Shown here: positions 25,309 through 55,848 of the stretch, one piece after another | How the letters are laid out: each line of letters begins with the position of its first letter | How positions within the stretch are numbered: the first letter of the stretch is position 1 | NCBI GenBank assembly: GCA_937120475.1 | Contig: CAKZJV010000007.1 | Location: 572,068-636,067 of the forward strand | Direction: 5' to 3' | DNA: 64,000 bases | Origin: an uncultured Cryomorphaceae bacterium | GTDB lineage: Bacteria > Bacteroidota > Bacteroidia > Flavobacteriales > Schleiferiaceae | The notes under the pieces: model-generated | Databases searched by the model: none | Told to the model about the DNA's origin: nothing | Seen by the model: only the letters and a program-made list of their open reading frames with translations | Made by a program: the position numbers and the translations under genes

Positions 25309-25759
25309 AGCAGGAGAGTTGGTAGAAGAGGATGGCAGCCGTAAGCACAACGGGAATTAGGTAAAAGGGCAAGAGAGTATGGGAAAACATGATCCTTAAG
25401 GTACTTGGGGGATCAGTTATTTTTTCGGGCTGCCGATCAAGGGTTTTTAGATCGTATAGATATTGATCCATTGTAGGGCGGTGTTGTATCAACCATTCGT
25501 AGATTCTGCGGAACTTGCGCTCTTTTTGTAAAAAGAAGGCATCCAGGTACCAGAAGCAAAATACCGGCACTAACAAACTGAGCGAAAGCAATAAGCCTAC
25601 GATACTCTTTTCCAGCAGCAAAGCATCTTTACCCAGCACAATAACGGCCATAAAAATACCGATGGCCCATCCTTTTACTTTAAAGGCATTATCAGCCATG
25701 CGCTTGATCGCGTCTTGTAATAAGTCCAGTTCTTTATGAATTTGTTCTTGTGTGGGCAT
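25307..25759 (-). CDS. small multi-TM membrane protein, putative effector partner of the TIR protein
   Basis: 150 aa. Soluble ~30-aa N-terminus followed by two or three hydrophobic helices. The gene overlaps the upstream LRR-Roc-COR-TIR gene by 26 nt, so they form an operon. Confidence 0.55.
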   Translation of the reverse strand: MPTQEQIHKELDLLQDAIKRMADNAFKVKGWAIGIFMAVIVLGKDALLLEKSIVGLLLSLSLLVPVFCFWYLDAFFLQKERKFRRIYEWLIQHRPTMDQYLYDLKTLDRQPEKITDPPSTLRIMFSHTLLPFYLIPVVLTAAILFYQLSC

Positions 25760-37361: not shown

Positions 37362-40300
37362 TTATTCTTCCATTTGATTCAGTACCCGTGATTCTGACCG
37401 GACCTGGTAAAGCGGCAGAACCAGCCTGATCCGAATACCGTTTTTTTGATTCAGATGGGATATGTGTATAAAGTCAATGTTTTTATACTTGGCATAGAGC
37501 AGTGTAATTCGTTTCCTGAGCGCCTGGATTCTGACCGACTTACCCAAAGCGTCTAAGCGATTGAACCCCGGATTTAAAATGTTGATTTGGATAAAGCTTT
37601 CCCTGGGAAATATGTTTATCCTCGTAAACTCGAGGCTATCTTTAACCGTGGCCCTTCCCGCAAGAAATAATTCTATGAACGGTTGAAGGATAAGGCCAGG
37701 AACAAGTACCTCACCGGTAGAAATACTACGATGTACTTCCAACGATACGTCCAGCCTCTTTCCAAATCGCATTTTCTCTAATTCAAGGTATAATTCTAAA
37801 CACTGTATTTCTTTGTGTAAAGGCACCATACGTTCCTGCGAAAGCTCAATATTCAAGCGTATTAACCGCCCAAAGAGTGCGAGGTATTCCGAGGCTTCAT
37901 CAGCTTTGGAAGCACCTATCATATATTGGATGGAGTTTAAAGCATTAAAAATGAAATGAGGATTCATTTGAGCTTGTAAAGCATGGGCTTGCAAAGAAGA
38001 TATTTCTTTTTGAAAATGAAGCTTATCACGGTGAAACCGGTACCACCACAGTAGAAGAAAAAAAATGATCAACACGGTCAGGAATACCGAGCCCTTTCGC
38101 ACTAATGGCATTTGCGTCCAGTGGGGGTGAATTTCAAAATTCCAGCTGGCCGTTTGCTCACTTACCATTCCATTTTCGGTAAGTGTACCTACTTCAAAAC
38201 TATATTGACCCGGCTCCAGGTTGTGAAAATTAGCCCAAGACTCCTGAGTAGTATTCCATTGGTTTGAAAAACCGTTTAAACGGTAGGCATATTTTAGTTC
38301 ACGTGATTCCTGAAACAGCAACCCACTAAAGTAAAAGGTCAGGTCATTTTGATTGTAATTCAGGTTTGTCTTGCTATGAATGGTTTGTTCCTTGCCATCT
38401 ACTACCACTTTACACACAGTCATTTTTGGCGGGTGGTTACCGGCAAGGTGCAGGGCAGGGTCAAAAATGGATATCCCGGCATGGGTACCTACCACCATTT
38501 TGTTTTTAAAAAAACAAAGCGCGTTAACTTCACCCGATACCAGGCCTTTACTGTCTGAGAATATCTCTGTCTTGTATAAAAATGGCGAGTAGGAAAGTAC
38601 GCTGAGTTTACATATCCCTTTATTAGTGGCCAACCATATATGACCCGGAGCGCCTGATACGATGCGCTTTACGATATCATTTTCCAGTTCCCTTACTTTA
38701 AAAAAGCTTTGATTGTCTGGCTTATACCCAAACAAGCCGTAACCATCGGATGCAATCCATAAAACCCCTTGCGCACCATATTCCATGTCGAGTATTGAGG
38801 ATTGTAGAAGAGGATCTGTGGTATAAGGGAAGTGATCTTTACGAGCAGGGTCAATATACCCCAGTCCATTGGTTCGTCCGTACCATACAGCACTATCTTC
38901 CGGCTGATTGGCATAGGAGCGTTTTGTGGACAATAGTTCCAAGGAAGGTTTATAACGGGAAAAATCAATTCGGGCAATGCCATTTCCGGCCGAAACCACC
39001 AGCTCCTGATGTCCATGAAAACTCCCGTTTTTAACAAACATCCCTATCGAAGCCTGTGGACTCAATTCATAGACTTGAAAACACTTTTTGTCCTCTACCC
39101 TGAAGACAGGTAGCCGGGCTTCCCATTCCTGTATTTTATGCAGCTCTTTACGTGGCAGGTACAACAGGGTGCGTTCGGTAGCAACTATGATCCGATCGTG
39201 AACCCGGTCCCAGAACATTTCACGCACCACCCCTTTCCAGGAGCCGCTTATTTTTTTTAAGCTCCCGCTTGAATCCATCTTCAATATTCCCTGATACGTT
39301 CCTATTAATAACTCCTCACCCAGGTTTAAAAAACAAAGTGCCCTAAAGCTCTCTCCATTTTTAGTGTGGTAATAGTTAGTCATTCCGGTCTTTAAGGCAG
39401 CTGCAGGAAAAAAATTCAGGCCCACTCCCCTGCCACATAGCCATAGGTTGCTTTCGCGGTCTTTATACGCAAATTCAAAAGGTGTTTTTGGAAGGTAGGC
39501 ATTTAAACTATCCAGAGATAAATCTGGATTTAGCACTACATTCCCACAATTGGTCAGTAACCAATATTGCCCCAGGTTTTTGGGGTAGCCGGTGATTTTC
39601 TCAATTCTACATCCTTCGCCCAGCAGGTCGGCCGTATTAAAAACTTCAAAATTTTGACCCACCGGTTTAAAACGTAGGATATAGTCTTCCATCAGCAATA
39701 ACCAGCCTTCATTGTCAATGGCTTTCACAACGTCCAGTACGCCCGCAGAAGATTGGATGGGCAGAGGCCATTTTGTAACACCGTGGCTGTGGAGCAGTAA
39801 GATCGTATCTTTTCTTAAAAACCAAAGGCCTGAAGAGTCCTGCTGCAGAAACTTAGCATCACCAACCCCTTGTTCATGGTAATTTATCCGCTTCAGGGAG
39901 TTGTTGGCATCCAGCTGAATTAAAGCATTTTCAAAAGAGAACCAAAGGGTACCGTCTTGCGCTTCTGAAATGTAGTGTACGCCAGAAACATGCAGGGAAT
40001 CCGGTAGTGCTATGTGTTTGATTTCACCTTTGTAGATGTAGCTCAGGTAAGGACTAAAACTCCGGATCCATATTCGTTGCTGTGAATCTTCAAAAAGTCC
40101 CCATACATCGTTTACCTGTAAGCCATCCTTAACGGAATAGTTCTTAAAACGGTATCCGTCAAAACGGCTGACCCCAAATTCCGTAGCCAGCCATAAAAAG
40201 CCATCCGAGGATTGTAAACATTCATATATGGTACTGGCCGGTAAACCATCTCTTACATTATACTGGAAATAAGGTTGTACCTGTGCAACAATACGGTTGA

Positions 40301-40376
40301 GACTTCCCAGAAGTAAGCTGAGCATACCAAAGGCAAAAACCTTTGCATAAAATGTTAAACGGGTATAGTGTACCAC
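37362..40376 (-). CDS. sensor histidine kinase with periplasmic two-component-regulator propeller and Y_Y_Y domains and a LytS-type kinase core
   Basis: Signal or TM segment. Long beta-propeller repeat region. TM helix. C-terminal His_kinase block HALQAQMNPHFIFNALNSIQ (LytS/YehU type). Overlaps the LytTR regulator gene by 22 nt. Confidence 0.8.
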   Translation of the reverse strand: MVHYTRLTFYAKVFAFGMLSLLLGSLNRIVAQVQPYFQYNVRDGLPASTIYECLQSSDGFLWLATEFGVSRFDGYRFKNYSVKDGLQVNDVWGLFEDSQQRIWIRSFSPYLSYIYKGEIKHIALPDSLHVSGVHYISEAQDGTLWFSFENALIQLDANNSLKRINYHEQGVGDAKFLQQDSSGLWFLRKDTILLLHSHGVTKWPLPIQSSAGVLDVVKAIDNEGWLLLMEDYILRFKPVGQNFEVFNTADLLGEGCRIEKITGYPKNLGQYWLLTNCGNVVLNPDLSLDSLNAYLPKTPFEFAYKDRESNLWLCGRGVGLNFFPAAALKTGMTNYYHTKNGESFRALCFLNLGEELLIGTYQGILKMDSSGSLKKISGSWKGVVREMFWDRVHDRIIVATERTLLYLPRKELHKIQEWEARLPVFRVEDKKCFQVYELSPQASIGMFVKNGSFHGHQELVVSAGNGIARIDFSRYKPSLELLSTKRSYANQPEDSAVWYGRTNGLGYIDPARKDHFPYTTDPLLQSSILDMEYGAQGVLWIASDGYGLFGYKPDNQSFFKVRELENDIVKRIVSGAPGHIWLATNKGICKLSVLSYSPFLYKTEIFSDSKGLVSGEVNALCFFKNKMVVGTHAGISIFDPALHLAGNHPPKMTVCKVVVDGKEQTIHSKTNLNYNQNDLTFYFSGLLFQESRELKYAYRLNGFSNQWNTTQESWANFHNLEPGQYSFEVGTLTENGMVSEQTASWNFEIHPHWTQMPLVRKGSVFLTVLIIFFLLLWWYRFHRDKLHFQKEISSLQAHALQAQMNPHFIFNALNSIQYMIGASKADEASEYLALFGRLIRLNIELSQERMVPLHKEIQCLELYLELEKMRFGKRLDVSLEVHRSISTGEVLVPGLILQPFIELFLAGRATVKDSLEFTRINIFPRESFIQINILNPGFNRLDALGKSVRIQALRKRITLLYAKYKNIDFIHISHLNQKNGIRIRLVLPLYQVRSESRVLNQMEE

Positions 40377-41125
40377 TTAAGCATTTTTTGAAATAAAGGG
40401 AACTGCCTCCGGGAAACCGGGATTTCCACTTTATTCTTCATCCATACGGTACCCCCGTTGGCCTTTGAAAAACCTTCCATAAACCTGAAGTTAATCATAT
40501 AGGATTTATGAATTCTTAAAAAACAATCTTCCGACAAAAGCTGCTCAAAATTTACAATGGGCTTAGATACGAGCAATGCTTCACCCTTTTCAAGGTAAAG
40601 GGTGGTATACATATTATCGGCCTTTAGATATACGATATCCTTTTTATTGATTAATGAAATTCCCTTATGGTGAGATACGGCAATTTTACAGGCATTTTCG
40701 CCCTCTGTGCTGTTTATCTGTCTTTTTTTCAAGCAGGCATTCCAGGCTTTCAGGACGGCCAATTGAAGCTCCCTGACTCTTAAAGGTTTTAGAAGATAAT
40801 CAAGAGCTCCCGCTTTAACTGCTTTTATGCCATAATCGGGGAAAGCAGTCACTATAATTACTTCATAAGGTATAGGGTTGCTCTGATCTTCAATCAGATC
40901 AAAACCACTGCCCCCGGGCATCTGCACATCTAAAAAAACCAGGTCGGGAACTATTCGGTCCAAGCAGCTTCGGGCTTCCTCCAAATCTTGCGCGTACCCG
41001 GCTATTTCTATTTGAGGGCAATGTTTCTTGAGGAGCTGAGCCAGGTTTAGACGGCTGTATTCTTCATCATCAACAATAAGAGCCGATAAGGCATACTTTC
41101 CAGTATACCGGGATTGCATTTTCAT
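40355..41125 (-). CDS. LytTR-family response regulator
   Basis: Receiver domain (LIVDDE...FLDVQMPGGSG) plus LytTR DNA-binding domain. Confidence 0.85.
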   Translation of the reverse strand: MKMQSRYTGKYALSALIVDDEEYSRLNLAQLLKKHCPQIEIAGYAQDLEEARSCLDRIVPDLVFLDVQMPGGSGFDLIEDQSNPIPYEVIIVTAFPDYGIKAVKAGALDYLLKPLRVRELQLAVLKAWNACLKKRQINSTEGENACKIAVSHHKGISLINKKDIVYLKADNMYTTLYLEKGEALLVSKPIVNFEQLLSEDCFLRIHKSYMINFRFMEGFSKANGGTVWMKNKVEIPVSRRQFPLFQKMLKWYTIPV

Positions 41126-41291: not shown

Positions 41292-41858
41292 TCAATGACG
41301 CACCATAATTTTGGTGCTCACATAACCGCTAGCTTTTTTGAAACGAATAATATAGTAACCGTCCTCAAGGCCAGCCGTGTTCAAGCGGTACGATCCATTT
41401 TCCATAAAATCCGAACCATCCGGTAAACCTAGTTTTTGACCGTTTAGTCGGTACAATTCAGGAATTCCGTCCAGAAGCTTCCGTTCAGCCGGTTCCAAAT
41501 GGGTAAAGTCTCCGGCCGGATTAGGAAAAGCTGTTATTTGCTGTTGAGCTTCTTCCAAAGGGCTGATTACCCAGTTTCGACCTTTATCCACACTGGTTTT
41601 ACTTAACAGGCGTGGGTAGCTGAAGGTAATACGCCTGGCCGGTCTTACTTTCCATGATCTTCCATTGTCAGAGCTAAATTTTTCCGACCCGAATGGATAG
41701 TGAAAGCTTATTGTATCCGGCCTGCTCACCTGCCAGGTCTGACCATTATCCAGGCTGGTTTTAGTGAGGCCGAAAGGATAATTAATAGTGACTTTCTGAG
41801 CGCACAGTGTTGACGAAGCACACCAGCCTATACTCAGTATTAGAATAAGATATTTCAT
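41292..41858 (-). CDS. secreted BNR-repeat protein with a T9SS C-terminal sorting domain
   Basis: Three YPFG..K.S.DNG..W repeats. C-terminus AFPNPAGDF...YYIIRFKKASGYVSTKIMVRH (Por_Secre_tail). Confidence 0.6.
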   Translation of the reverse strand: MKYLILILSIGWCASSTLCAQKVTINYPFGLTKTSLDNGQTWQVSRPDTISFHYPFGSEKFSSDNGRSWKVRPARRITFSYPRLLSKTSVDKGRNWVISPLEEAQQQITAFPNPAGDFTHLEPAERKLLDGIPELYRLNGQKLGLPDGSDFMENGSYRLNTAGLEDGYYIIRFKKASGYVSTKIMVRH

Positions 41859-41869
41859 GTTGAAAGGGT

Positions 41870-42586
41870 TTATCGGTTATAAATAGACCCACAAACTGGA
41901 ATACATTCAAAAATGGTCCCGATACTCCAGGGGTCGTTCTGTCCGTCACAATCCGGAAATTCGGGTGGCAAGTAGCCGGTATTGGTAATATCCTTATTTC
42001 CACTTTGATCCAAACACACGGTAAACCGCTCCAGGCAGCAATCGGTGGTGGTACAGGGCCAGATAATGTCTATATAGTTAGGCCCGCTGGTATAGGTGGT
42101 CTGACCGGAAGTCTTTCCTACTCCCAATATTACATCCCCTCTCCAACAGGAGCCCTTCAATACCCTCCAGTTGGTGGCACAATCACCAGGATTTACCGGG
42201 GGAAAGGCCGCGGGGTTGGCTATAATCAGCTGTTCACTTACCAGGCGTAGAAATTCATTCATACCCCCTACCGAATTAATACAGTTGTAAAAATCGGTAC
42301 TATTGGTTCCGGGTCCTGGTGTGATCTGATCACCTATGTAGTAGTCGTACCAAATACCGCAGGCAATGCGAAAACCATATTCTACTTCAAAATACTTGCC
42401 CGGGCAAATTTCAAGGGTGATATTAAAAGGTCCCTGAAAAGGATCGTTAAAACAATCCGGCAAACAGGCATCCTGCATTGTTTGTCCGTAGGTTGCAGGC
42501 AGCGATGTCAATCCTAGCACGAAGGCTAGAAGCAGTGCTTTTAAACCAAAGCTCAGCTTAGTTTTTGAGTTGTTCAAATGTTTCAT
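41870..42586 (-). CDS. secreted Cys-rich protein (238 aa)
   Basis: Signal peptide (ATYGQT). More than 18 Cys residues. No recognised domain. Confidence 0.5.
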   Translation of the reverse strand: MKHLNNSKTKLSFGLKALLLAFVLGLTSLPATYGQTMQDACLPDCFNDPFQGPFNITLEICPGKYFEVEYGFRIACGIWYDYYIGDQITPGPGTNSTDFYNCINSVGGMNEFLRLVSEQLIIANPAAFPPVNPGDCATNWRVLKGSCWRGDVILGVGKTSGQTTYTSGPNYIDIIWPCTTTDCCLERFTVCLDQSGNKDITNTGYLPPEFPDCDGQNDPWSIGTIFECIPVCGSIYNR

Positions 42587-44382: not shown

Positions 44383-44407
44383 TAAATTTTTAGTACCTAT
44401 AGAAAGA

Positions 44408-44435
44408 AAGCCCGGTTAAACCCGGGCTTTTTTTA
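44408..44435 (+). terminator. rho-independent terminator
   Basis: AAAGCCCGG-TTAAA-CCCGGGCTTT followed by TTTTTT. Confidence 0.65.
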
Positions 44436-44588
44436 TTGCGGTAAGCTTTATTTCCCATTTACCTCATTTTTCATTGTACTGCTTATACCAGGACTTCCAT
44501 TCGCTCAAAAAAACATACTCTTTACATCTATTTCTTCCCCCTTAAGAGCAAATGTTCTAATTTCAGAAAGCCAATTTAAAACCAAACC

Positions 44589-47285
44589 ATGTCCAATTTA
44601 TCAACTCTTTGCAGTGAGCTAAAGGCCGTTACCGGTCAGGGCTCCGTTACTCTACCCAATAGTCAGGTTACCGCTGTGGACCTGAATAGCTTTATCAACA
44701 ATATTTTTAAAACCGAAAGCATTGCCCTGGGGCAGGTCTCAGTAGCCTGTAACGACTCTACCGTTACCCTTACCGGTATCTGGATGTTTCTGGGGGCAGC
44801 CGTAAATGTTACCTGGTCGTTTACCGAAGAAGGTGACGGTTCCATTACCTGGGGTATAAGTGCCAGTTCCACCACTACCAGTTCGGTAAATACCGTGCTA
44901 CAGCAGTTCCTTTCTGATGTGCCAGACATACCTTCTACCGTTAGTGGTTTGCAACTTACCCAACTGGGTTTTGATGCTTCCTTCAATACTACTACTAAAT
45001 CGTATCAGTTAGACCTTAAAGCCTCCACCACCTGGGGTGCCGTGGAACTGCTGGTTCAGGATAACAGTGGCACATGGGGTGCCGCCTTTGGTATTAGCGT
45101 GAGCGACACTTTTACCTTATCCAAAATTGATAGTGGCCTCACCGTGTTCAACAGCCTCAGCTTTTCCAATTCGGCCGTGGTGGTAGCTGATTTTGAAGAC
45201 GGCAGCATTCAGATTGCCGGTATTACCGGGGTGGTGAAAGGAGTAGAATTCCGCTCCACCCTTAACGTGAATGAAACTAGCGGAACTTCGGCTTTAGCCG
45301 AAATCATGAATGAACTGGGTAAAAGCCTTAGCGGGGTACCCCTGGATATTTCCCTGGACCTCAGCACTACCGAGTTTAAGTTGGAAGCCTCTATCGGTAA
45401 ATCCTTTGCCCTGCCTGGTTTTAGTAAACTTACTTTGTCCAATATTAATTTTACGCTGGACACTACTCCTTCGGCCAGCCTTTCCGGAACCCTGGATATG
45501 CCGATTACCATTCCCGCTGACCCAACGGTAAACAGCATAAGTGTAACCGGTTCTATTTCATTTACCTACAGCGATGGCACCGGTACGGTGCAAGCCACAC
45601 TCAACAGTGATACTGTAATTAAAGAGCCTTTTAATTTTTACGGGGTAACCCTACAGGATGTTGGGGTAGGCCTGGACGTTTCCTTCGGTGTGGAAACCGG
45701 GGCCGGGGTCACCCTGGAAGGCGCCTTTCAACTGGGTAGCGATCAGCCGTTGAGTGAAAAATTCGCGGTAACCATGGAGTTTACCGATGACTTGCCCAAC
45801 CCTTCCCTGCTATACGTGGAAAGCAAAAATTTGAGTTTGCCCACTCTGTTCAATGCACTCATCAGTAGTAGTATTACCCTACCCTCGGTACTCAGTGGTT
45901 TCCAGTTTACGGAATTAACGCTGTACTGGTGCGATAAGGCCCAAAACCTGCCCGATGGCACCCCCTGTAAAGTGGGTTACGGTTACAATGCCGCTCTTGA
46001 CCTTTGGGGCTTTGATACTTATACCGAGTTAATGATCAATCAAGGCAGCGGCATCACCGGAACGGCCAGTGCCAACCCCATATCCCTTTGGAGTGGGAAA
46101 ATCAGTTTGACCGGTAGTGGTCCCGGGGGCAAAGGTGTAACAGCCGGTGGGCCCTATTTTAACTTTGATACGTCCAAAGAATCTTTCGATGTTAGTGTAG
46201 ATGCCAATATTCTGGGAATAACCGAAGTAGTCAACGCCAGTGTGTCTTCCTCCTCCCTGGATATTAATATGAGCAGCAACTTCGGCTTCTTGCAGGATTC
46301 GCTGGCCGTAACTTTTAAAGATGGTGGGGCTACCATGGCTTTTTCCAGCTCCCTGAACATCGGCATCAACGCTTCACCCAGTATTTCCATCGGTAGCGTA
46401 AACCTGGGAACCATTCATATCGATGATTCCCTGAGCGGTAGCCTGGATGTATCCTTTCAAAACGGTAAATTAACTGCACAGGTAAACGGAAACTTTAATT
46501 TTAACGGGGCTTCCTTCGGCTTTAACTATGACGTAGGCACCAGCCTTACCGATCTCGGAGACCTGGCCGGAGCTATTGCCCAAAAAATTGAAAGTGAAGC
46601 CGAAGCCATCTTCCAGCACTACTTCTCGGATGTGAAAAACTACATAGATGTGGTAGGTAAAGGACTGTTGACCGGGGGCGAGTTTGTATTGAACGCCCTT
46701 TATCACGCCTACACCACTTCCATTACCGAAATTATTGATCTGATCTCCGACCTGCCTTCCGGTTTCAAAGTAGATGGTACCGTTGATTTTGAGATCAATA
46801 TAGCACCCAGCATACCTTCAGAATCCTTCCATGCCGATTTGGGGCACATCCTCAATACCCACGGTGATGCACACGGTGACCACTCCGTAGGTTTCTTGGG
46901 GCATTTTGATCATTCGCTCTTCAATATCCACGGTGACATTAGCGCCAGCCAGGGCTTCAGCACCCCGGCCTTCAGCTTTACCCTGCTGGATATTCACCCA
47001 CAGCAACACTTTGATATGACTATGCCGCCAACTATACATGCCGATGCTCAATCTCCACACATCGATGCTTCTCCGCACCTGGATTTGGGTATTGCTGGTG
47101 GATCACTGGGCGTAGGCGGTAATGTAGATGTAAACAGTTCCGTAGCGCTGAACGACATTAGCCTGCAGGCCCACCTCAACGTTTCGGCCCATGCCGGGGT
47201 ACATGCTGATGTATTGCACGTAGGTGCGCATGGCGATACGGGTACACACATCGATCAGGGACTTCCTCACGTAGATTTAGGTTGA
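44589..47285 (+). CDS. large Ser/Thr/Gly-rich protein with a C-terminal His-x-Asp repeat tail; putative substrate of the downstream radical SAM enzyme
   Basis: 898 aa, no signal peptide. The last ~150 aa carry about 14 H-x-D triplets (HAD, HGD, HFD, HID, HLD, HVD). Its stop codon lies 1 nt before the radical SAM start. Confidence 0.55.
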   Translation: MSNLSTLCSELKAVTGQGSVTLPNSQVTAVDLNSFINNIFKTESIALGQVSVACNDSTVTLTGIWMFLGAAVNVTWSFTEEGDGSITWGISASSTTTSSVNTVLQQFLSDVPDIPSTVSGLQLTQLGFDASFNTTTKSYQLDLKASTTWGAVELLVQDNSGTWGAAFGISVSDTFTLSKIDSGLTVFNSLSFSNSAVVVADFEDGSIQIAGITGVVKGVEFRSTLNVNETSGTSALAEIMNELGKSLSGVPLDISLDLSTTEFKLEASIGKSFALPGFSKLTLSNINFTLDTTPSASLSGTLDMPITIPADPTVNSISVTGSISFTYSDGTGTVQATLNSDTVIKEPFNFYGVTLQDVGVGLDVSFGVETGAGVTLEGAFQLGSDQPLSEKFAVTMEFTDDLPNPSLLYVESKNLSLPTLFNALISSSITLPSVLSGFQFTELTLYWCDKAQNLPDGTPCKVGYGYNAALDLWGFDTYTELMINQGSGITGTASANPISLWSGKISLTGSGPGGKGVTAGGPYFNFDTSKESFDVSVDANILGITEVVNASVSSSSLDINMSSNFGFLQDSLAVTFKDGGATMAFSSSLNIGINASPSISIGSVNLGTIHIDDSLSGSLDVSFQNGKLTAQVNGNFNFNGASFGFNYDVGTSLTDLGDLAGAIAQKIESEAEAIFQHYFSDVKNYIDVVGKGLLTGGEFVLNALYHAYTTSITEIIDLISDLPSGFKVDGTVDFEINIAPSIPSESFHADLGHILNTHGDAHGDHSVGFLGHFDHSLFNIHGDISASQGFSTPAFSFTLLDIHPQQHFDMTMPPTIHADAQSPHIDASPHLDLGIAGGSLGVGGNVDVNSSVALNDISLQAHLNVSAHAGVHADVLHVGAHGDTGTHIDQGLPHVDLG

Positions 47286-47286
47286 T

Positions 47287-48465
47287 ATGGGAGTTGAACT
47301 GAGGCCTATGGGCGTAAAATGCAATATTGCCTGCCAGTATTGCTATCAACACCCGCAACGTGATGTAGAGGACAAGCGGAAGCCCTACGATATGGAGCTT
47401 ATGAAAGAAGCCATCCTGAAAGAGGGTCAGAAATTTACCCTCTTTGGCGGTGAAGCCTTAATGGTGCCCCTGGAAGACCTGGAGGAGTTGTGGAGCTGGG
47501 GGCTAAAGGAGTTTGGTATAAACTCCGTGCAAACCAACGGTTCACTAATTACGGAAGCGCACATTGACCTTTTTATAAAGTACAAAGTGCAGGTAGGTGT
47601 GTCTATGGACGGGCCGGACGCACTCAATGATGTCCGCTGGGCCGGAAGCCTGAAACGTACCCGCGAACACACGCAAAAATCACAATGGGCCATTGAGCGG
47701 ATGTGCGAAAGAGGTATTCCCCCGGCCATGATCATAACCTTACATAAAGGCAATGCTACGGCCGATAAGCTGCCCGAAATGGACCGCTGGTTGATGGGTT
47801 TGGATAAGATCGGTGTGAATAGCGTACGGCTTCACCTTATGGAGGTAGAAAATGAAACCCTGAGGCAAGCCTACCACCTCAGCCCCGGGGAGAACCTACA
47901 CGCTCTTACCCATTTTCATCACCTGGAAAAAGAAATGAACGACCTGCGCTTTGATATTTTTGGAGAAATCAAACGTTTGCAAAATGCCGAAGACCACCAG
48001 GTAAGTTGCGTATGGAAAGCCTGTGACCCTTATACCACCGCTGCCGTTCGCGGTGTGGAAGGTGAAGGGCAACGCAGCAACTGCGGACGTACCAATAAAG
48101 AAGGTATCGAATTTGTAAAGGCTCCGTTACCCTCCTATTCACGCTACATCGCTCTGTATCACACACCCCAGGAAGCCGGTGGCTGTAAAGGCTGCCGTTT
48201 CTTTAGTATGTGCAAGGGGCATTGCCCGGGCACCTCTTTGGAAGGCGACTGGCGTTTTAGAACCGAGCACTGCGAGGTGTGGAAAAAGATGTTTGAACTG
48301 GCCGAGGAGGAAGCAGTGGCTGAAGGTAAAACCCCGCTCTCCTTGCACCCGGCCCGCCCCTACCTGGAGCAACGCCTGCTGGAAGGTTGGAGCCGTGGAC
48401 AAAACTACGCCCTGCAAAGCCTGATCAAGGAAATGGCCTCCAAACCTCAAATGGCAACGGTATGA
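47287..48465 (+). CDS. radical SAM enzyme with a C-terminal SPASM/twitch-like Cys cluster
   Basis: CNIACQYC (Cx3Cx2C) at the N-terminus. C-terminal cysteines (CVWKAC...CGRT...CKGCRFFSMCKGHCPG). Start and stop codons overlap the neighbouring genes. Confidence 0.8.
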   Translation: MGVELRPMGVKCNIACQYCYQHPQRDVEDKRKPYDMELMKEAILKEGQKFTLFGGEALMVPLEDLEELWSWGLKEFGINSVQTNGSLITEAHIDLFIKYKVQVGVSMDGPDALNDVRWAGSLKRTREHTQKSQWAIERMCERGIPPAMIITLHKGNATADKLPEMDRWLMGLDKIGVNSVRLHLMEVENETLRQAYHLSPGENLHALTHFHHLEKEMNDLRFDIFGEIKRLQNAEDHQVSCVWKACDPYTTAAVRGVEGEGQRSNCGRTNKEGIEFVKAPLPSYSRYIALYHTPQEAGGCKGCRFFSMCKGHCPGTSLEGDWRFRTEHCEVWKKMFELAEEEAVAEGKTPLSLHPARPYLEQRLLEGWSRGQNYALQSLIKEMASKPQMATV

Positions 48466-49277
48466 ATGAGATGAGCTTTAGCATGCCCGCTTTTAAGAGC
48501 ATTGCCTGGGTAAGCAACCAGGCACGGCTTAGCTGGGCCCACCGCATTAAAAAACTCAACCACGCTTTGGCCGATACGGCCGTGAAGCTGGTAGCAGATG
48601 GACTACTTCCCAGCCTGCAAATAACCGTAGAAGGAGTGCTTTACTTTAAGCTTTTACAACAAGCAAGAGATCTGGAAGTACCCCTGGAAGGCCGTTTACT
48701 GGGCAATAAAGATGTTCCCGGCCCGGTGTATTACTGGGTACAACTGGGCGATCCGAAAAGTGGCTTATGCCGTGCTTGCGCGGAAAGCAGCTTATTGCAT
48801 TTGGAAAGCGGGGATAAAGAGTGCCTTTGGGAACTAAACTCCGAGGGGAACGATACCGAAACCATCCGCGAAACTGAAAATCCCGCCATTAGCGGGCACC
48901 TATGGCGTAAACTGGTGAGCCATACCGGACCAATAAGACCTTGCTCTCTGCATTGCTCCTCGCTGAGCCGCATTGATAGAAAGATAATGGATGGTCTCAG
49001 GATCAATGGTTATAGTGAAGAAGCTGAATGGCGTGAAGCTATTTATTCCTGGCCGGTTGAATGGAATGCCGTAAATGGTATTGCCGAACTGCGCAGCCCG
49101 GTAGTGAAGTTGGCTTATGACACCGATGCAGCCCAGGAAAAAAGAGTAATCCGTTTTAACGGTACCGCCTATCCTGAGGAAGGCCCCTTTGGCCGGGAAT
49201 TTCCCTATAAAAGACGCAGGTTTTTACGCATCTCCGATTCTAAATCATTTAAAGCCGGACTGGAGCATGGAAACTGA
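48462..49277 (+). CDS. hypothetical protein, translationally coupled (ATGA overlap) to the radical SAM gene
   Basis: Start taken at MNEMSF, where the ATG overlaps the TGA of the upstream gene. The track ORF begins at 48387. Confidence 0.45.
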   Translation: MNEMSFSMPAFKSIAWVSNQARLSWAHRIKKLNHALADTAVKLVADGLLPSLQITVEGVLYFKLLQQARDLEVPLEGRLLGNKDVPGPVYYWVQLGDPKSGLCRACAESSLLHLESGDKECLWELNSEGNDTETIRETENPAISGHLWRKLVSHTGPIRPCSLHCSSLSRIDRKIMDGLRINGYSEEAEWREAIYSWPVEWNAVNGIAELRSPVVKLAYDTDAAQEKRVIRFNGTAYPEEGPFGREFPYKRRRFLRISDSKSFKAGLEHGN

Positions 49278-50664
49278 AATACTCCCTTTTCTGAAACAAG
49301 ATGAGTGGGCCCTGGCGGCAGTACCCCAAAAGAATGGTAGCGACACCGCTATTTTCCAAAAGGCAGCCCGGCACACCGAATTAAAGATTGCACCGCCAAA
49401 AAGTCCGGAAGAACCCGGTTATTTAAATCATAAAGTTGCACTTCGTCACCGTGATTGGGACAGTGATTTTTTGCAGTCTTTTGAGCACGCACCCTTCGAC
49501 CACCCTATGTTGAAAGAGGCCGAAGAACTACTGCGATGCTGGCCGGAAATGTATGCTCAATGCGGGGAGATACTGAAGGAATTCAACCCGGTTTTTATAA
49601 AGGGTATTGAAGACCGGAAAGACCATACCGGCTCCAACAGCCATCAACCGAAAGGTACTTTGGGGAGTATGTGGGCTACCGTTCACAACCCGGTGTTATT
49701 GGCGCAAGCCATCGTTCATGAAACGGCTCACAATAAGCTGTTTTCCTTAGGACAACACTTTGAAACACCGGGTCCCCTATTCAACAATCGCCCGGATGAG
49801 TTGTACGACAGTCCGGTGCGTTTGGATATTCCCCGGCCGATGCCGGCTGTTTTTCACGGGGTATATGCCTTTACCCATGTACTGGCACTGGATCGAAAGA
49901 TGTTCCAAAAAGCTAAAGCCGAATATCGCGGCTTTATACTGGGCTTGCTTCACCACAATGCCTTGCGCATAAAAAAAGGATTACAGTGGGTGGAAAGCTG
50001 TGCGCAACTAACTACGGCAGGCCGGGCCTTTATGCGCAGTTTCCTGCCCTGGGCGCACGGGGAGGTTGAAAAGGCTTTGCAGGAATCGCGGGTCGCTTCA
50101 CGCAACTACCAGGAAGGCCCCATTGCCCTGATCGGTTTAACTCCCGAAAGTCGTAAACGTACCATCGATCGCCTGGTACAGGAAACCGGCCGGGCAGTGG
50201 TTCAACTGGATAATATTAAATGGGAAGTGTGGGCACAATCTTCCGTAGTTCAAAAAAAGCAGCTGGATCAGTACGGTTCACCGGAACTGATGAAAGCCTT
50301 TACCGAAAGTGGCAAGTTTCATCCGCAACAATATTTAAGCAACTGGTTGGCCCGGGGAGTTTTTAATCTTTTGGAATACGAATTTCTCAAACTGCAATTG
50401 GCCAGTTACGCCATACAAAAGTATCCGAACGCTATACTCGATTTTGGCCATGATAATGCTCTGTTGGAGCAAGACGAATTCCTGGCCCGTTTGCAGCAAT
50501 TATTTCGCGAAACAAATACCCGGGTTATTTATACCCGTCCACTGGCTTCCGTTGAAGACAGCATAGAACGGCTGAAGGAAAATAGTGTTTCAGCCGAGCA
50601 TTTACGCAAGGCCCTTGAATTACCCGCGTACCGGACCCTTGGTGTTGAAGTGGTAGTTTGTTAA
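49267..50664 (+). CDS. HExxH-motif protein of the kind found next to radical SAM/SPASM maturases
   Basis: AIVHETAHNKLF HExxH motif. Start taken at METEIL, overlapping the upstream gene. The track ORF begins at 49189. Confidence 0.45.
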   Translation: METEILPFLKQDEWALAAVPQKNGSDTAIFQKAARHTELKIAPPKSPEEPGYLNHKVALRHRDWDSDFLQSFEHAPFDHPMLKEAEELLRCWPEMYAQCGEILKEFNPVFIKGIEDRKDHTGSNSHQPKGTLGSMWATVHNPVLLAQAIVHETAHNKLFSLGQHFETPGPLFNNRPDELYDSPVRLDIPRPMPAVFHGVYAFTHVLALDRKMFQKAKAEYRGFILGLLHHNALRIKKGLQWVESCAQLTTAGRAFMRSFLPWAHGEVEKALQESRVASRNYQEGPIALIGLTPESRKRTIDRLVQETGRAVVQLDNIKWEVWAQSSVVQKKQLDQYGSPELMKAFTESGKFHPQQYLSNWLARGVFNLLEYEFLKLQLASYAIQKYPNAILDFGHDNALLEQDEFLARLQQLFRETNTRVIYTRPLASVEDSIERLKENSVSAEHLRKALELPAYRTLGVEVVVC

Positions 50665-50815: not shown

Positions 50816-52756
50816 ATGGATCATGACTCTATTGTACGGGTGGCTATCTATCCACCTTTGGGTATTGCCCGTGTGGGTAATTCCAACGAATATTTTTTCG
50901 CTTCCGATGTTCCGGGCGTGGCCCCGAAACCCGAAGGCGGCTATAAAGACGGTGATAATCGCGTTAAAAAACAGGTAGCCCGTTTCCGGGTGTATGCCTT
51001 TAATGCGGATGGTAAACCCCTGGGTGAATTAAATCATAACAACTCTACACAGATCGAGTGGCGGGTGCATTCCGCCAATGTTAAAGCGGCCTGGTACCAG
51101 TTTAATAATGCTTTGGATCTATCCGATCGTGGGATTTCATCCTTATACCGCAACAGCAGTGTTACGGGTGCCGACCGTCAGCAAATGGTAATCGACCCGG
51201 GCTCCCGTACCATCTCCGGGCTCAATCAGCAAGGCCCGGAATACCAGCTGGACGGTGGTAAATTCTTTGACATGGAAGTTCCCTTGGGTGAAATCCGTAC
51301 CGATGAACAAGGAAGACTGCTTTACTTCGGTGGAGACGGGCATTCGGCTTCTCTCAACAACGCTCCTGCCACCACTTTTGCCAATAACGATGGCTGGCAC
51401 GATGATACCTCCGATGGTGTGATACGGGCTACGGTAAGGCTCAGCAATGGCCAAACGCTGGAAGCCACCCCCGCCATGGTAGCCGTTACTCCCCCTGATT
51501 TTGGTCCGGGTCTTTATGGTGTAGTCACCATGAATGATGTGGTGCAGAACCTCTTCATCAACGAGATGAATTATCCCGATCCGGCTGCGGATGGTGTGGT
51601 CTTTTACCGCGACATCTACCCCATGCTGCAACGCATGACCAACACACAGTGGGTAAACCAAGGTTTTTATATGCTTTTCGGTAAAAACTCGCCATCGGAC
51701 TTTACCGATCCGGATTACCTCGCGCAGCTATCCAGCAACTCAGAAGCTAATAAAGCAGCGCGCATGCGTGTATTCAACTGGTTCCGCAACCCTGATGATG
51801 CTAAAGATACGCCTACCAAGATCCCGCCCTTTTACGGGGATGGTTTCGGGGAATACTACAATACCGCCCTAGACAATTTACCGGTAACCCAAATCCAGTA
51901 CGCGCGCCTGCAAAAATGGGCCAATGGCGATTTTGAGACCGGTAAGCTACAGCCTCCTAAAAGTTTTAATGAAATGACGCCCGGGGAGCAGATCAACTCC
52001 TTGAATCAAGCTCCTTTTGAAGAGTGCCTGGGTGGTCCCTTCCACCCCGGTATTGAAATTACCTGGCCCATGCGCGTTAAGCTCATGTGGGAAGAACCCT
52101 ATCGTTTGAAAACGGTAAAAGAAGGGGAATCCACTCAACTGGATTTTGGCCCTTTACTGACCTCTGAAATTGCGTTGTCAGCGGATGGCCCCTTGTCCAA
52201 AAGCGGACCCGGTGCCTTAACCCGCTGGCTGGGTGTACCTTGGCAAACCGATGAGGCCAGTTGCCTTTCCGGTTACAACACCACCTATTATCTGCCACTT
52301 CCCTCCTTTTGGGCGGCAAGGGTACCCAACCAGGTAATGAGCGAAGAAAGCTACCAGCGTATGCAGGATGAAAAACTAAACCTGGCGCAACGCCTCAAGC
52401 ACTTTGATTACCGCCAGGACTGGTTGCGTGACTTCGGTACGGTGTATCAAAAGAAGATCAATTATATGGTGCAGCGCTGGCACGACCTGGGTATTATTGC
52501 TCAGGATAGCAGCGATAATCAGGGGTCGGATAACTACTTGCCCGAACAGGTGTGGAAGGAAACCGGCCGCAATTTTGATCCGCTCAGCGACCCCACTTTT
52601 GAGCAAGTACTGATTGCCGAAGGTGTGAAAGAACCGCAAACCGAGCCCCTGCTAAAAGCAGCCCTTGCGGTTGAAGAGAAATCCGGTAAGGACAAGAAAG
52701 TGACCAAAGACTCCATCCGGAGGCAGCAACGCACCTTCGGACGTGGGGAGTTATAA
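50816..52756 (+). CDS. LodA-like protein (putative quinoprotein amino-acid oxidase family)
   Basis: 646-aa protein immediately upstream of a LodB-like flavoprotein gene. Size and gene pairing match lodA/lodB. No motif could be verified by eye. Confidence 0.4.
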   Translation: MDHDSIVRVAIYPPLGIARVGNSNEYFFASDVPGVAPKPEGGYKDGDNRVKKQVARFRVYAFNADGKPLGELNHNNSTQIEWRVHSANVKAAWYQFNNALDLSDRGISSLYRNSSVTGADRQQMVIDPGSRTISGLNQQGPEYQLDGGKFFDMEVPLGEIRTDEQGRLLYFGGDGHSASLNNAPATTFANNDGWHDDTSDGVIRATVRLSNGQTLEATPAMVAVTPPDFGPGLYGVVTMNDVVQNLFINEMNYPDPAADGVVFYRDIYPMLQRMTNTQWVNQGFYMLFGKNSPSDFTDPDYLAQLSSNSEANKAARMRVFNWFRNPDDAKDTPTKIPPFYGDGFGEYYNTALDNLPVTQIQYARLQKWANGDFETGKLQPPKSFNEMTPGEQINSLNQAPFEECLGGPFHPGIEITWPMRVKLMWEEPYRLKTVKEGESTQLDFGPLLTSEIALSADGPLSKSGPGALTRWLGVPWQTDEASCLSGYNTTYYLPLPSFWAARVPNQVMSEESYQRMQDEKLNLAQRLKHFDYRQDWLRDFGTVYQKKINYMVQRWHDLGIIAQDSSDNQGSDNYLPEQVWKETGRNFDPLSDPTFEQVLIAEGVKEPQTEPLLKAALAVEEKSGKDKKVTKDSIRRQQRTFGRGEL

Positions 52757-52966
52757 AAACTATGTTGAAGGCACTTCCTTTTCCAGCAGAATAGTAAGAG
52801 CAAAGCTTCGAGACTCAGGTATTCCCTTTTAGGAATACCGCGAAGTTTGCCTTACGGTTTTTACTCAGATTATATCTGAGTAAAAAATTCCTTTGGAAAA
52901 GCGTCTTTTTCTTTGGTTCGTTTCTTTTGGACGAGCAAAAGAAATGAACATAAAAAATCCTGATTT

Positions 52967-53989
52967 TTGGACCCGCTTAATACAGATATAGTAATCATTG
53001 GTGGCGGCCCCGCAGGGGTCGCCACTTCTTTAACCCTCACGGCACGGGGAGTTCCCCATGTAGTGGTAGAGGCCCAAAAACAACCCCAGCGCAAAGCCGG
53101 GGAAGCTTTACCGCCCAATGCCAAACCATTGTTGCGGCAATTGGGTATGGATGACCTGATGGAGCATCCCGCTCACCTCCCCTACCACGGTAATCAAAGC
53201 ATTTGGAAAGGTTCGCCCCTCCGCACCGAGGACTTTATCAAGTGCGTACACGGTCACGGTTATCTGCTGGACCGTCTGGTTTTTGAGCAACAACTAAGGA
53301 AACTGGTGAAAGCCCCTTTTTACACCGGCTATAAATTGCGATCGCTTTCTTCATTAGAAAATGGTGTGGAAGTCACGGTGGAAAACCTGGCGGATTCACT
53401 TGGTTTTAAAGCCCGGTATATCGTAGATGCTACCGGCCGTAAAGCCAGCGTATGCCGGCATTTAGGCGTGGTACCTACCGTATTGGACGAATGGTTCGGG
53501 CTGTGGTTTTATGCCGAGGGCAAAGCCCCGAAGCAAATCTTTGTGGAAAGTACCGAACAAGGTTGGTGGTATGCCGCTCCCTTTGGTGCAAACCAGGTCA
53601 CAATGATGTTCTTTACCCGCAAGGAATACATTCCCACCAAAGCCAAAATACCGGCTTTTCTGCAAAAGCAATTCCGGCAAACCACGCAACTCGCCAAAAC
53701 GTTTAGCATTCCTGATCTCAGCCCTGCCGAAGTACAGATTCGCCCCTCCGGAACGGCCTTTCTGGATCAACCGTATGGTACTAACTGGTTAGCGGTAGGT
53801 GATGCCGCTTACGCTTACGACCCTATTTCGTCTTTTGGTATTACCTCCGCCCTGGCGGGCGGTTACTATGCCGGTCATGCCTTAGCCGATAGTTTAGAAG
53901 GAAAGGATGATGCTTTAGGGGTATATCGTTATGTGATGGAGAATGCTTTTCAGGGTTATAAAGAAAAGTTGATCAAAGTATATGCTTAA
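52967..53989 (+). CDS. FAD-dependent oxidoreductase (LodB-like or halogenase/GG-reductase-like flavoprotein); TTG start
   Basis: DIVIIGGGPAGVATSLTL Rossmann FAD motif. GDAAYAYDP motif (GD...DP of the flavin monooxygenase family). Confidence 0.65.
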   Translation: MDPLNTDIVIIGGGPAGVATSLTLTARGVPHVVVEAQKQPQRKAGEALPPNAKPLLRQLGMDDLMEHPAHLPYHGNQSIWKGSPLRTEDFIKCVHGHGYLLDRLVFEQQLRKLVKAPFYTGYKLRSLSSLENGVEVTVENLADSLGFKARYIVDATGRKASVCRHLGVVPTVLDEWFGLWFYAEGKAPKQIFVESTEQGWWYAAPFGANQVTMMFFTRKEYIPTKAKIPAFLQKQFRQTTQLAKTFSIPDLSPAEVQIRPSGTAFLDQPYGTNWLAVGDAAYAYDPISSFGITSALAGGYYAGHALADSLEGKDDALGVYRYVMENAFQGYKEKLIKVYA

Positions 53990-54021: not shown

Positions 54022-55848
54022 ATGCGACCAAGCCGAACCTCTCAGAATCAACCATTCAAGAACAAACCCAAACAGGATACACCCAATAGCGAAGAACTGA
54101 AAAAACAGTTAGATACTTCTTCTGCACTAAACCGCACACTAGGCTTAGCTTTTATGAGCGTATTGATTTATATGCTCATTACAATAGCTTTGGTTACGGA
54201 TATGACCCTCTTATTGCCCGATAGCAAAGTAAATCTACCCATTATTAATGTGGAAATCGGGTTATTTTCATTTTTCCTAGCAGCGCCCATATTAGTTTTA
54301 GGCCTTCACTTTAATTTATTGATTAACCTGTCCAACCACAGTGCTAAACTTAAAAACTGGCTAGATAGAAAAGCAAATAAAGAGCAAGCTCAAAAGGAAG
54401 TACATCCTTTTATTTTCAATCAACTACCCTTTTTAAGAAAAGGAAATATAAAAGATTACTTGACCTTTAGTTTGGTTAAAATTGGAGTCTTTTATATGCC
54501 TCTTGCGGTAATGCTATTGATGCAACTGCGTTTTTCAGATTATCAAAGTTCATGGATGACCATCCTGCATTTTAGTTTTCTTACTGTCGATTTTTTATTA
54601 ATTCGAAATTATTACTCGGAAATCATTCTGGATAAGTATCCTATCAATTTCAAAAAGACTTTTTCTTTTTGGAATTATTCTTTTTTAGCAGTTGGAGTTA
54701 TTAACCTTTTAATCTTTGGGATTGTGATACTTAACTGGTTTCCTGAAAAAACTGGGGCCTTTATGCATAAGTCTCAAAACTGGTTTGCAGAACAAATAAA
54801 ACCCAGGATTACAATCAAGGGATCAATTCAGGCAGATGATAATATCACTGAATTTACCTTGTATTATATGAATAAAGGTTTTTCAGAAAGTGATTCAAAG
54901 GAACAAGCAACACATTTTTTTGGAAATAGTATTAATATAGAACACCGAAATTTTAATTACGCTGTCCTACAGTCAATCAATCTAAGCCACAATGACCTTA
55001 GAGATGTAGAACTATTTGGAGCTGATCTCAGATATTCCTACCTTCAAAAGGTTAATTTACAAGCTGTTCATTTAAAAGCTGTCAACTTAGCTCATACCAA
55101 ACTGCAAGGAGCAGTTCTAAATGGGGCTAAATTAGTGGGGCTTAACCTACAGTCGGCCAAGTTACAGGGCGCAAATCTGGCCAATGCTAATTTAGCAGGA
55201 GCTAATTTAAAGTATGCCGAACTACATGAAACCTTTTTATTCGCAACTAAATTCCAAGGTGCTATTTTATCTGGTGCTAAGTTAGAGGGGATTTATTTAA
55301 ACCAGTCAAATTTTGGTGGTGCGCTTATGGTGCATACTTATCTAAAAGGAATCGGAGGCTCTATTCTTGCTGTCTATTATATACCTAATTCTGGTTATCC
55401 TACAAGTCTTGAATACTCTGATAGTCGTATTAAAGAAACATTTGAGGAAACCCTTGAAAAATATGCTTTTAAATCGCAGATCTTGCAAAATAGAGCTAAA
55501 AAAAGATCAGAAGCTTACCCAATAATTAGATCTAGTTTAAATAGTTTTATTATAGTAAGAAAATCATTATTGGATAGCATAAACATACCTCTTAATCATC
55601 TTTTTATAGGGGGTAACGATATCGTTTGGTCCCCAGACTCAACGGTTAACAGTGAAATAGCTTTACACAATAGCATTCTCTATCAACATCTCAAAACCCA
55701 TGTTCCCCACCGCTTAGAGGAGTTTCGTAAAGACAGTGCTAACTTTATTTTTTCAACTACTCAACTTCAAATGAAGAACCCTAGCCTAAGCCGGGGTTCT
55801 TCTTCTCCAAACAACCAAAAATCAAATAATACTATTCCGCACCCGTAG
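54022..55848 (+). CDS. membrane-anchored pentapeptide-repeat protein
   Basis: N-terminal TM helices. Long run of A(N/D)LxxAxL pentapeptide repeats (LQGANLANANLAGANLKYAEL). Confidence 0.75.
   Translation: MRPSRTSQNQPFKNKPKQDTPNSEELKKQLDTSSALNRTLGLAFMSVLIYMLITIALVTDMTLLLPDSKVNLPIINVEIGLFSFFLAAPILVLGLHFNLLINLSNHSAKLKNWLDRKANKEQAQKEVHPFIFNQLPFLRKGNIKDYLTFSLVKIGVFYMPLAVMLLMQLRFSDYQSSWMTILHFSFLTVDFLLIRNYYSEIILDKYPINFKKTFSFWNYSFLAVGVINLLIFGIVILNWFPEKTGAFMHKSQNWFAEQIKPRITIKGSIQADDNITEFTLYYMNKGFSESDSKEQATHFFGNSINIEHRNFNYAVLQSINLSHNDLRDVELFGADLRYSYLQKVNLQAVHLKAVNLAHTKLQGAVLNGAKLVGLNLQSAKLQGANLANANLAGANLKYAELHETFLFATKFQGAILSGAKLEGIYLNQSNFGGALMVHTYLKGIGGSILAVYYIPNSGYPTSLEYSDSRIKETFEETLEKYAFKSQILQNRAKKRSEAYPIIRSSLNSFIIVRKSLLDSINIPLNHLFIGGNDIVWSPDSTVNSEIALHNSILYQHLKTHVPHRLEEFRKDSANFIFSTTQLQMKNPSLSRGSSSPNNQKSNNTIPHP

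Follow-up and report, generated by a model that had tools for sequence, protein, structure and literature searches.

What does a radical S-adenosylmethionine (SAM) enzyme act upon when its gene directly follows that of a large protein ending in an array of His-x-Asp motifs? The question is raised by four plus-strand genes, G1 to G4, packed into positions 44589-50664 of a 64-kb stretch of DNA from an uncultured Cryomorphaceae bacterium; the whole stretch is termed the window. A preliminary description, made from the sequence of the window, had recognized the four as encoding a repeat protein, a radical SAM enzyme with a SPASM-like region, an unknown protein and an HExxH protein, and had suggested that they form an uncharacterized maturation system. 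This set of genes is confirmed, and the suggestion is supported by comparative analysis, in which the radical SAM enzyme lies outside the curated families and its gene neighbourhood is conserved. The motif His-x-Asp (HxD) is very probably the substrate of G2 (the radical SAM enzyme) acting with G3, because the genes are linked, conservation operates at the level of the motif, and some of the enzymes themselves carry HxD tails. For the complete proposal, i.e. a post-translational maturation system targeting His-x-Asp in which G2 and G3 crosslink His to Asp, G4 hydroxylates and the product binds metal, we consider the chances to be about even.

The His-x-Asp protein and the radical SAM enzyme

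The histidine residues of G1 are concentrated at its C-terminus: the final 163 residues hold 20 of the 23, and 13 of the 20 have an aspartate at position +2. Shuffled versions of the tail have a mean of 1.95 HxD motifs, and none of 100,000 shuffles reached the 13 observed. No other reading frame of the window contains four or more HxD per 80 residues. Seven motifs keep both His and Asp at 90% conservation or more in 22 full-length homologues (41-90% identity), with a variable residue between the two. The H-x-D repeat tail seen in the preliminary description is thus real.

G1 has no match in the curated libraries, i.e. Pfam, NCBIfam (of June 2026) and PADLOC. No signal peptide was found in G1, and its reading frame cannot be extended upstream. 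A structural model of the protein (predicted local distance difference test (pLDDT) 80.6, predicted template modelling score (pTM) 0.54) is almost wholly antiparallel β-sheet, and passes from an all-β N-terminal part through a helical linker (residues 656-719) to the HxD tail.

G2 belongs to the radical SAM superfamily, matching PF04055 with 49.4 bits against a cut-off of 29.5. The cluster motif C12-x3-C16-x2-C19 is invariant in 22 orthologues, as are the C-terminal cysteines C241, C246, C266, C300-x2-C303-x5-C309-x3-C313 and C329, so that both cysteine-rich regions pointed out in the preliminary description are present. SPASM domains have a C-terminal seven-cysteine pattern with CX2CX5CX3C that holds two auxiliary 4Fe-4S clusters, and the cysteine motif places G2 in this subgroup. 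Its CxxCx5Cx3C stretch aligns with the SPASM segment of anSME (4k36). The assignment is made from the motif because the curated SPASM models PF13186 and TIGR04085 were not reported for G2 at the thresholds used. The architecture is compact and anSME-like, with the radical SAM core beginning at the N-terminus and no N-terminal recognition domain. The solved structures closest to G2 are anSME 4k36 and the radical SAM domain of ChlB (9gm3).

The scores of G2 against NCBIfam models are 73 bits for AmcB (cut-off 425), 65.2 for anSME (TIGR03942; 349), 64 for DynA (450), 57 for YhhB (445), 48 for GrrM/OscB (310), 37 for FxsB (370), 34 for XyeB (450) and 25 for DarE (650). Four of the top five families, i.e. 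all except anSME in second place, are cyclophane-forming or related crosslinking maturases; the two best matches (AmcB and anSME) span the radical SAM core only. The HxsB and HxsC models are not among the best 25 NCBIfam matches (all E ≤ 1.3e-5), and PADLOC returned only generic viperin-type (pVip) radical SAM models. Membership of the Hxs, anSME or curated cyclophane families was rejected, the scores being below the cut-offs or absent. Assignment of the enzyme to a well-characterized family acting on something other than peptides would have counted against a maturation system, and with the best scores so far below their cut-offs no such assignment arose. At E ≤ 1e-5 the homologues of G2 make up 1,957 protein clusters; identity to G2 is 56-92% among the best 120 listed.

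The gene set in other genomes

One genome per species (185,579 species) was scanned with two peptide patterns derived from the radical SAM enzyme only, giving 203 confirmed loci. Eighty of these, chosen by similarity of the radical SAM enzyme alone, were kept with 10-kb flanks. They come from about 15-17 phyla, archaea included: Bacteroidota, Gamma- and Alphaproteobacteria, Chloroflexota, Cyanobacteria, Armatimonadota, Myxococcota, Acidobacteriota, Actinomycetota, Planctomycetota, Gemmatimonadota, Nitrospirota, Nitrospinota, Bacillota, Rokubacteria, SAR324 and one Nitrososphaeraceae archaeon. The distribution is patchy over these distant phyla despite 55-60% identity of the enzymes.

The neighbourhood, whose conservation the preliminary description had made a test of its proposal, is well preserved in the 80 loci. 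A G3 homologue lies directly 3′ of the radical SAM gene in 72 (tblastn); in four of the other eight the contig stops just after the radical SAM gene, and in nine loci radical SAM enzyme and G3 form a single reading frame. An HxD-dense open reading frame (ORF), i.e. one with at least five HxD in 80 residues in a six-frame scan, is present in 61 loci, and in 57 it is on the strand of the radical SAM gene between −6 and +3.5 kb. As a control, dense segments were counted throughout the same loci: this near zone (765 kb) holds 74, and the other 610 kb hold only 2. Of these two, one looks antisense to an HxD ORF, and the second coincides in part with the G1-matching stretch of L062. A looser threshold added five further loci with minimal peptides of 3-4 HxD. 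The 1,312 motifs collected have the consensus [P/G/A]-H-[G/V/A/I/S/T/L]-D-[T/S/A], in which His and Asp are fixed, and are mostly spaced by 3-9 residues.

All-against-all clustering of ORFs merged the radical SAM enzyme, G3 and G4, probably via fused or overlapping ORFs, and clusters of apparent antisense ORFs in high-GC genomes were discounted. This clustering gave no further family widely conserved in the 80 loci, the next most frequent being response regulators (12 loci), B12-type radical SAM proteins (five) and HprK-like proteins (four). Read from its sequence, a second radical SAM protein of the B12-binding type stands beside the radical SAM enzyme and G3 in L031, L063, L066, L075 and L077. 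A clear HxD ORF is missing from four of the five loci, and they may for that reason be a sub-variant with a different substrate.

The proteins that carry the motif are diverse. Besides all-β proteins of the G1 type there are proteins of 1,400-1,900 aa that have no known domains, Myxococcales proteins bearing lectin domains (Tachylectin/Tectonin), an FAD-binding oxidase, and short peptides of about 20-100 residues with 3-9 HxD. Single carriers have up to 50 motifs. Carriers of 130-320 aa with twin-arginine (Tat) signals were found 18 times in 17 loci, the signal being followed by a lipobox Cys in eight. The tail of a large protein had been put forward as the candidate substrate in the preliminary description, and this is borne out by carriers whose lengths run from about 60 to 1,900 aa. 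G1 itself, at 898 aa, does not have the short precursor with leader and core of a classical RiPP, a peptide made by the ribosome and modified after translation; short carriers occur in other loci, and the system therefore spans peptide and large-protein formats.

A compact variant is found in Pseudoalteromonas rubra and Pseudoalteromonas sp. (L024/L025, 6039-15541). It consists, in order, of a 965-aa TP_methylase-domain protein, a 94-aa peptide, at 8957-9241 of L024, that contains three HxD and a (D-V/I)n run, a PhyH-like oxygenase, the radical SAM enzyme, G3 fused to DUF364, and a TonB-dependent receptor. A search of plasmids gave only two relatives, both distant and haloarchaeal. In one of these (L081; Halomicrococcus gelatinilyticus plasmid NZ_CP100467.1, 116-8301) the radical SAM enzyme is 29% identical to G2, with a 206-aa protein containing 14 HxD upstream and a G3 homologue (E 1.4e-36 with the G3 profile) downstream. 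Immediately in front of this gene set are a baseplate J/gp47 gene and several unannotated genes, a position that suggests a connection with a phage-tail-like or injection apparatus.

G4 belongs to the aKG-HExxH-type peptide β-hydroxylase family (TIGR04267.2, IPR026337), scoring 79.8 bits against a cut-off of 40, with the motif H151-E-T-A-H155. It aligned weakly to ChlH (8s5f) across HExxH and the downstream SPxRxDxRP...H stretch. The C-terminal 208 aa have no Pfam match, and PADLOC has no match for G4. Only 26 of the 80 loci have a G4-type gene, which in two of them is fused to G3. The preliminary description had taken G4 for the kind of HExxH protein that usually accompanies such maturases; the HETAH motif and the family (now named peptide β-hydroxylase) stand, but the protein is not part of the core.

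Sequence comparison thus identifies an HxD carrier, the radical SAM enzyme and G3 as the conserved core, because G3 is present in 72 loci and an HxD ORF in 57-61, whereas an HExxH gene, present in 26, is accessory. It is the motif that is conserved rather than the identity of its carrier, as follows from the diversity of the carriers and from the haloarchaeal three-gene set at 29% identity.

G3 has no match in Pfam, NCBIfam or PADLOC. Assignment to DUF483 was rejected, since there is only a weak Pfam match in two of 11 family members; a literature search on DUF483 returned unrelated titles only, its term matching apparently also catching longer names such as DUF4838. At 50% identity the G3 family comprises 1,274 representatives. 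W16, C106, C165, E209 and F247 are invariant, C105, C161 and H205 nearly so, and distant members have the pattern 'GYPxCC ... HLPCxFxC'. Depending on lineage, G3 is fused to the radical SAM enzyme, a class-I SAM methyltransferase, an HExxH domain or a DUF364 'putative heavy-metal chelation' domain. The methyltransferase fusion occurs in 23 of the 80 loci and is confirmed by Pfam in P0162; among P0161, P0162, P0165, P0197 and P0217 there are fusions to methyltransferase, to HExxH, to both together, and to radical SAM enzyme plus methyltransferase. In P0168 and P0202 extra sequence was read by eye as DUF364-like, and P0168 also has C-terminal HxD repeats. Because one domain is fused to several different tailoring enzymes, we infer that G3 may be a substrate-recognition or scaffold module, and it has the appearance of a hub in the pathway.

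At least 14 of the radical SAM orthologues, mostly actinobacterial, end in a tail of their own with 3-6 (P)HGD-type motifs, e.g. ...HGDAPHGDVPHGDA (L031, L033-L035, L043-L045, L048, L053, L055, L056, L060, L064 and L065). Most of these loci also encode HxD carriers with Tat signals, several with a lipobox. The tail of the enzyme could be a site of self-modification, a pseudo-substrate or a metal site.

A possible His-Asp crosslink and its alternatives

The H-x-D motif has the aromatic-X-X3 format of triceptide motifs, and it occurs as arrays both in G1 and beside the orthologues of G2. Triceptide systems (HtkB, HaaB, YhhB and the fused ChlB-ChlH) likewise combine a radical SAM/SPASM enzyme with repeated aromatic-X-X3 motifs, and His is documented as the aromatic partner, its C2 being crosslinked to Cβ of X3 by HtkB, HaaB and YhhB (PMC11499958). 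ChlH, the characterized aKG-HExxH member and of the same HExxH family as G4, acts after crosslinking, hydroxylating Asp and His on the pre-formed cyclophane (PMC12636437). Drawing on this format and these precedents, we propose that in the cytoplasm G2 and its obligate partner G3 would act on each H-x-D unit of the G1 tail. The 5′-deoxyadenosyl radical would abstract hydrogen from the β-carbon of Asp, and the Asp radical would add to the imidazole ring of His, which lies two residues upstream. The result would be a triceptide-like three-residue His-Asp cyclophane, with a change of −2 Da per motif. G4 would then β-hydroxylate Asp and/or His of the crosslinked units, each hydroxylation adding 16 Da. 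Such processing would leave a rigid array of imidazole and carboxylate (and possibly hydroxyl) units, whose role we guess to be metal-ion binding at or outside the cell envelope. By analogy with the triceptides the His-Asp crosslink is our favoured modification, held tentatively and at slightly under even chances. Subsequent hydroxylation is fairly probable given the family to which G4 belongs, and the metal-binding role is possible but doubtful.

There are clear differences from triceptide systems. G2 scores below every curated triceptide-synthase model, an X3 Asp paired with His was not found among the literature motifs examined, the substrates reach 1,900 aa and 50 motifs, and the obligate partner G3 has no counterpart. 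Unlike the fused ChlB-ChlH, the HExxH protein here is separate and optional. Two other SPASM enzymes can be compared as well. In the QhpD/QhpC system the Asp/Glu side-chain carbons of a protein subunit are attacked by a SPASM radical SAM enzyme while the subunit is still in the cytoplasm and not yet exported. However, QhpD makes Cys-Asp/Glu thioethers, whereas the HxD arrays contain no Cys, and G2 scores 44 bits against TIGR03906 (QhpD), where the cut-off is 453. Like G2, anSME is compact, with its radical SAM core at the N-terminus followed by SPASM, and it acts on the C-β of a full-length protein. Unlike anSME, the present system has no sulfatase and no Cys/Ser target motif, and it has another partner and neighbourhood.

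A number of observations weigh against the proposed chemistry. The type of reaction is taken by analogy. G2 is far under every curated cyclophane-synthase cut-off and its similarity is mostly to the generic radical SAM core, while its best solved relative, anSME, is not a crosslinking enzyme. About 10-19 loci have no clear HxD ORF. Hydroxylation would not be intrinsic to the system, because the HExxH gene is missing from two thirds of the loci. The conserved Cys, His and Glu of G3 could equally mark a metal or catalytic site, i.e. a chemistry of its own. Lastly the tail of G1 is modelled as ordered β-strands, with a pLDDT of about 80-89 over part of it. Because of this prediction and the lack of a signal peptide, the tail could be a folded, unmodified metal site.

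This last point can be generalized. If HxD arrays were unmodified metal-binding segments, the radical SAM enzyme and G3 would act elsewhere, e.g. on a small molecule or cofactor that the HxD protein would later bind or deliver, and the linkage of the genes would reflect shared physiology and not the relation of enzyme and substrate. His and Asp at i and i+2 of a β-strand are a classic pair of metal ligands, as the strands predicted for the G1 tail would present them; one lineage has the G3-DUF364 fusion with a TonB receptor nearby, and neither a leader peptide nor a recognition domain is recognizable in G1. However, self-tailed radical SAM enzymes and minimal peptides of 3-4 HxD are hard to explain unless the enzyme recognizes HxD, the SPASM architecture is typical of enzymes that modify peptides or proteins, and the HExxH partner comes from a family of peptide hydroxylases. 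We consider this explanation to be highly improbable.

If HxD is the substrate, as we think very probable, the change made to it could be other than a His-Asp crosslink: epimerization of His or Asp, modification at the β-carbon of Asp or C2 of His, or a crosslink to atoms derived from G3 or elsewhere. That anSME, the closest solved relative, is an oxidase at protein C-β fits such a change, as does the position of G2 under all curated cyclophane-synthase thresholds, and the frequent G3-methyltransferase fusions suggest further or different chemistry. In the HxS system, moreover, an unexplained change of +8 Da is seen, and not −2 Da (PMC13128918). On the other side, the strict i/i+2 spacing of an aromatic residue and a residue with a β-CH2 is the signature of a three-residue cyclophane (PMC11499958), whereas epimerization or a change to a single residue needs no such pairing. 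In addition, aKG-HExxH enzymes co-occur with the system, and the characterized case works on cyclophane-bearing Asp/His (PMC12636437). Some other change to the motif is a serious but rather unlikely alternative to the crosslink.

Similar in organization to the present system is the anti-phage system HXS, comprising the repeat protein HxsA, the radical SAM enzymes HxsB and HxsC, and the partner HxsD. It too has a protein, and not a short peptide, with His-x-(small polar) repeats that is matured in the cytoplasm by radical SAM enzymes with a non-radical-SAM partner, and its product is exported to the envelope (PMC13128918). Unlike HXS, the present system has one radical SAM enzyme and not two, its HxD repeats are acidic and occur in far greater numbers, and it has no peptidoglycan-binding domain. 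Membership of HXS (HxsABCD) was rejected on account of the single radical SAM enzyme, the absence of HxsB/C from the best 25 matches, the HxD repeats and the unmatched G3; a model for HxsD is presumably included in NCBIfam, where G3 has no match.

The parallel with HXS raises a different question, i.e. whether the role, whatever the chemistry, is anti-phage defence in which an envelope repeat protein matured by a radical SAM enzyme blocks infection. In its logic HXS is the same, combining a repeat protein and radical SAM enzymes with a small partner and a periplasmic effector (PMC13128918). A defence role would also suit the patchy distribution across distant phyla, the baseplate J-like genes adjoining the haloarchaeal copy, and the presence in the window of defence-like genes for an LRR-Roc-COR-TIR protein and a WYL-domain protein. 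Yet the PADLOC match is limited to generic viperin-type radical SAM similarity, HxD repeats are acidic where those of HxS, for which DNA binding is proposed, are basic, the N-terminal domains of the carriers are very diverse (lectins, FAD oxidase, lipoproteins), and G1 lacks an export signal. We therefore regard defence as unlikely.

For the metal-binding role that we propose for the crosslinked array there are several hints: the Tat signals (some with lipobox), the acidic His/Asp arrays, the β-hydroxylase, the DUF364 fusion, and the TonB-dependent receptor of P. rubra. Together these point weakly to metal binding at the envelope. Extending the proposal to the whole family, it is conceivable, though distinctly speculative, that bacteria and archaea share a hitherto unrecognized system in which a dedicated radical SAM/SPASM clade and a hub, the G3 domain with a new fold, that recruits radical SAM, methyltransferase, HExxH and DUF364 modules would convert HxD into crosslinked, hydroxylated chelating units on peptides, 1,900-aa proteins and enzyme tails, giving a metallophore-like array that is made on the ribosome, borne by a protein and exported by Tat.

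The operon, its surroundings and its significance

The features of the operon are collected in Table 1. G1 and G2 are separated by 1 nt (TGA-T-ATG), and the stop codon of G2 is overlapped by the ATG of G3 as ATGA. The preliminary description had these two junctions right and gave a second ATGA for G3/G4; that junction is in fact an 11-nt overlap (ATGGAAACTGA), and the coupling is still tight. The GC-rich hairpin with its T-run probably marks the 5′ boundary of the operon. At the other end 151 nt separate G4 from the next gene. Identical counterparts of all four proteins are present in the public protein collection, and near-identical proteins are annotated as Cryomorphaceae or Owenweeksia.

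Table 1. Positions in the window of the operon genes and of features within and before them
Feature	Position (nt)	Strand	Basis
GC-rich hairpin and T-run 3′ of the upstream gene, aaagcccggttaaacccgggcttttttt	44407..44437	+	Sequence reading; stem recovered by terminator scan
G1, HxD carrier protein, 898 aa; all-β over the N-terminal ~735 aa	44589..47285	+	
His-x-Asp array, 13 motifs, H748 to D896; proposed modification target	46830..47276	+	Shuffle test, homologue conservation, same motif class beside radical SAM orthologues in many phyla
G2, radical SAM/SPASM enzyme, 392 aa	47287..48465	+	PF04055 and invariant Cys motifs
G3, partner protein, 271 aa	48462..49277	+	Conserved C105/C106, C161-x3-C165, H205, E209
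G4, 465 aa, aKG-HExxH-type peptide β-hydroxylase domain and 208-aa C-terminal domain without family match	49267..50664	+	TIGR04267.2
G4 hydroxylase domain, residues 88-257	49528-50037	+	TIGR04267.2 match
G4 HETAH motif	49717-49731	+	

Just upstream of the operon, on the minus strand, are a sensor kinase (37362-41125; Reg_prop, Y_Y_Y and His_kinase) and what reads in sequence as a LytTR-like response regulator (41292-42586). Similar propeller sensor kinases are found near the radical SAM gene in six other loci. A small ORF after this pair scores 23.9 bits with Por_Secre_tail (type IX secretion sorting), just under the cut-off of 27.

Downstream, at 50816-53989 (+), are a LodA/GoxA-family oxidase of the cysteine tryptophylquinone type and a LodB/GoxB-type flavoprotein maturase, both under the equivalog cut-offs (GoxA 484 against 750, GoxB 187 against 400). 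Their inclusion in the system was rejected: although they start 151 nt 3′ of G4, none of the 80 loci has a homologue beside the HxD system, including the 93%-identical L001, and they are therefore treated as a separate unit. They are followed at 54022-55848 (+) by a 608-aa pentapeptide-repeat protein, the N-terminal part of which reads as hydrophobic. The stretch holding this gene has a GC content of 0.36, compared with about 0.45-0.50, and is possibly foreign DNA. On the opposite strand at 55822-57558 is a BBE/FAD oxidase, and then at 57704-61141 a 1,145-aa protein without a Pfam match.

Elsewhere in the window, 25734-28952 (−) encodes a 1,072-aa ROCO-type protein with leucine-rich repeats (LRR), Roc, COR-A and a C-terminal TIR domain, an architecture that gives the impression that it could be related to defence. 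At 33641-35368 (+) a 575-aa protein of unusual architecture joins WYL and WCX regulator domains to a PhyH-type 2-oxoglutarate dioxygenase domain.

Radical SAM/SPASM maturases acting on repeated aromatic-x-x motifs are known in principle. What is new here is the clade of enzymes, the motif, the partner domain, the range of substrate size and the self-tailed enzymes. No curated model or solved fold in the libraries searched covers the radical SAM clade, G3 or the G1 carrier, and full-text literature searches on HxD together with radical SAM enzymes, cyclophane or Tat brought up no relevant paper. The clade is large, yet lacks a curated model or a description in the literature searched.

Should HxD be the substrate, the peptide chemistry of radical SAM enzymes would gain a new motif and, probably, a His-Asp linkage that is also new. 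Such maturation would then reach beyond short peptides, to very large proteins that carry dozens of sites, and a new obligate partner domain would be introduced. Radical SAM enzymes with substrate-like tails of their own are unusual, and offer a simple experimental handle. The suggested role in metal handling at the envelope is one that can be tested in cultured strains.

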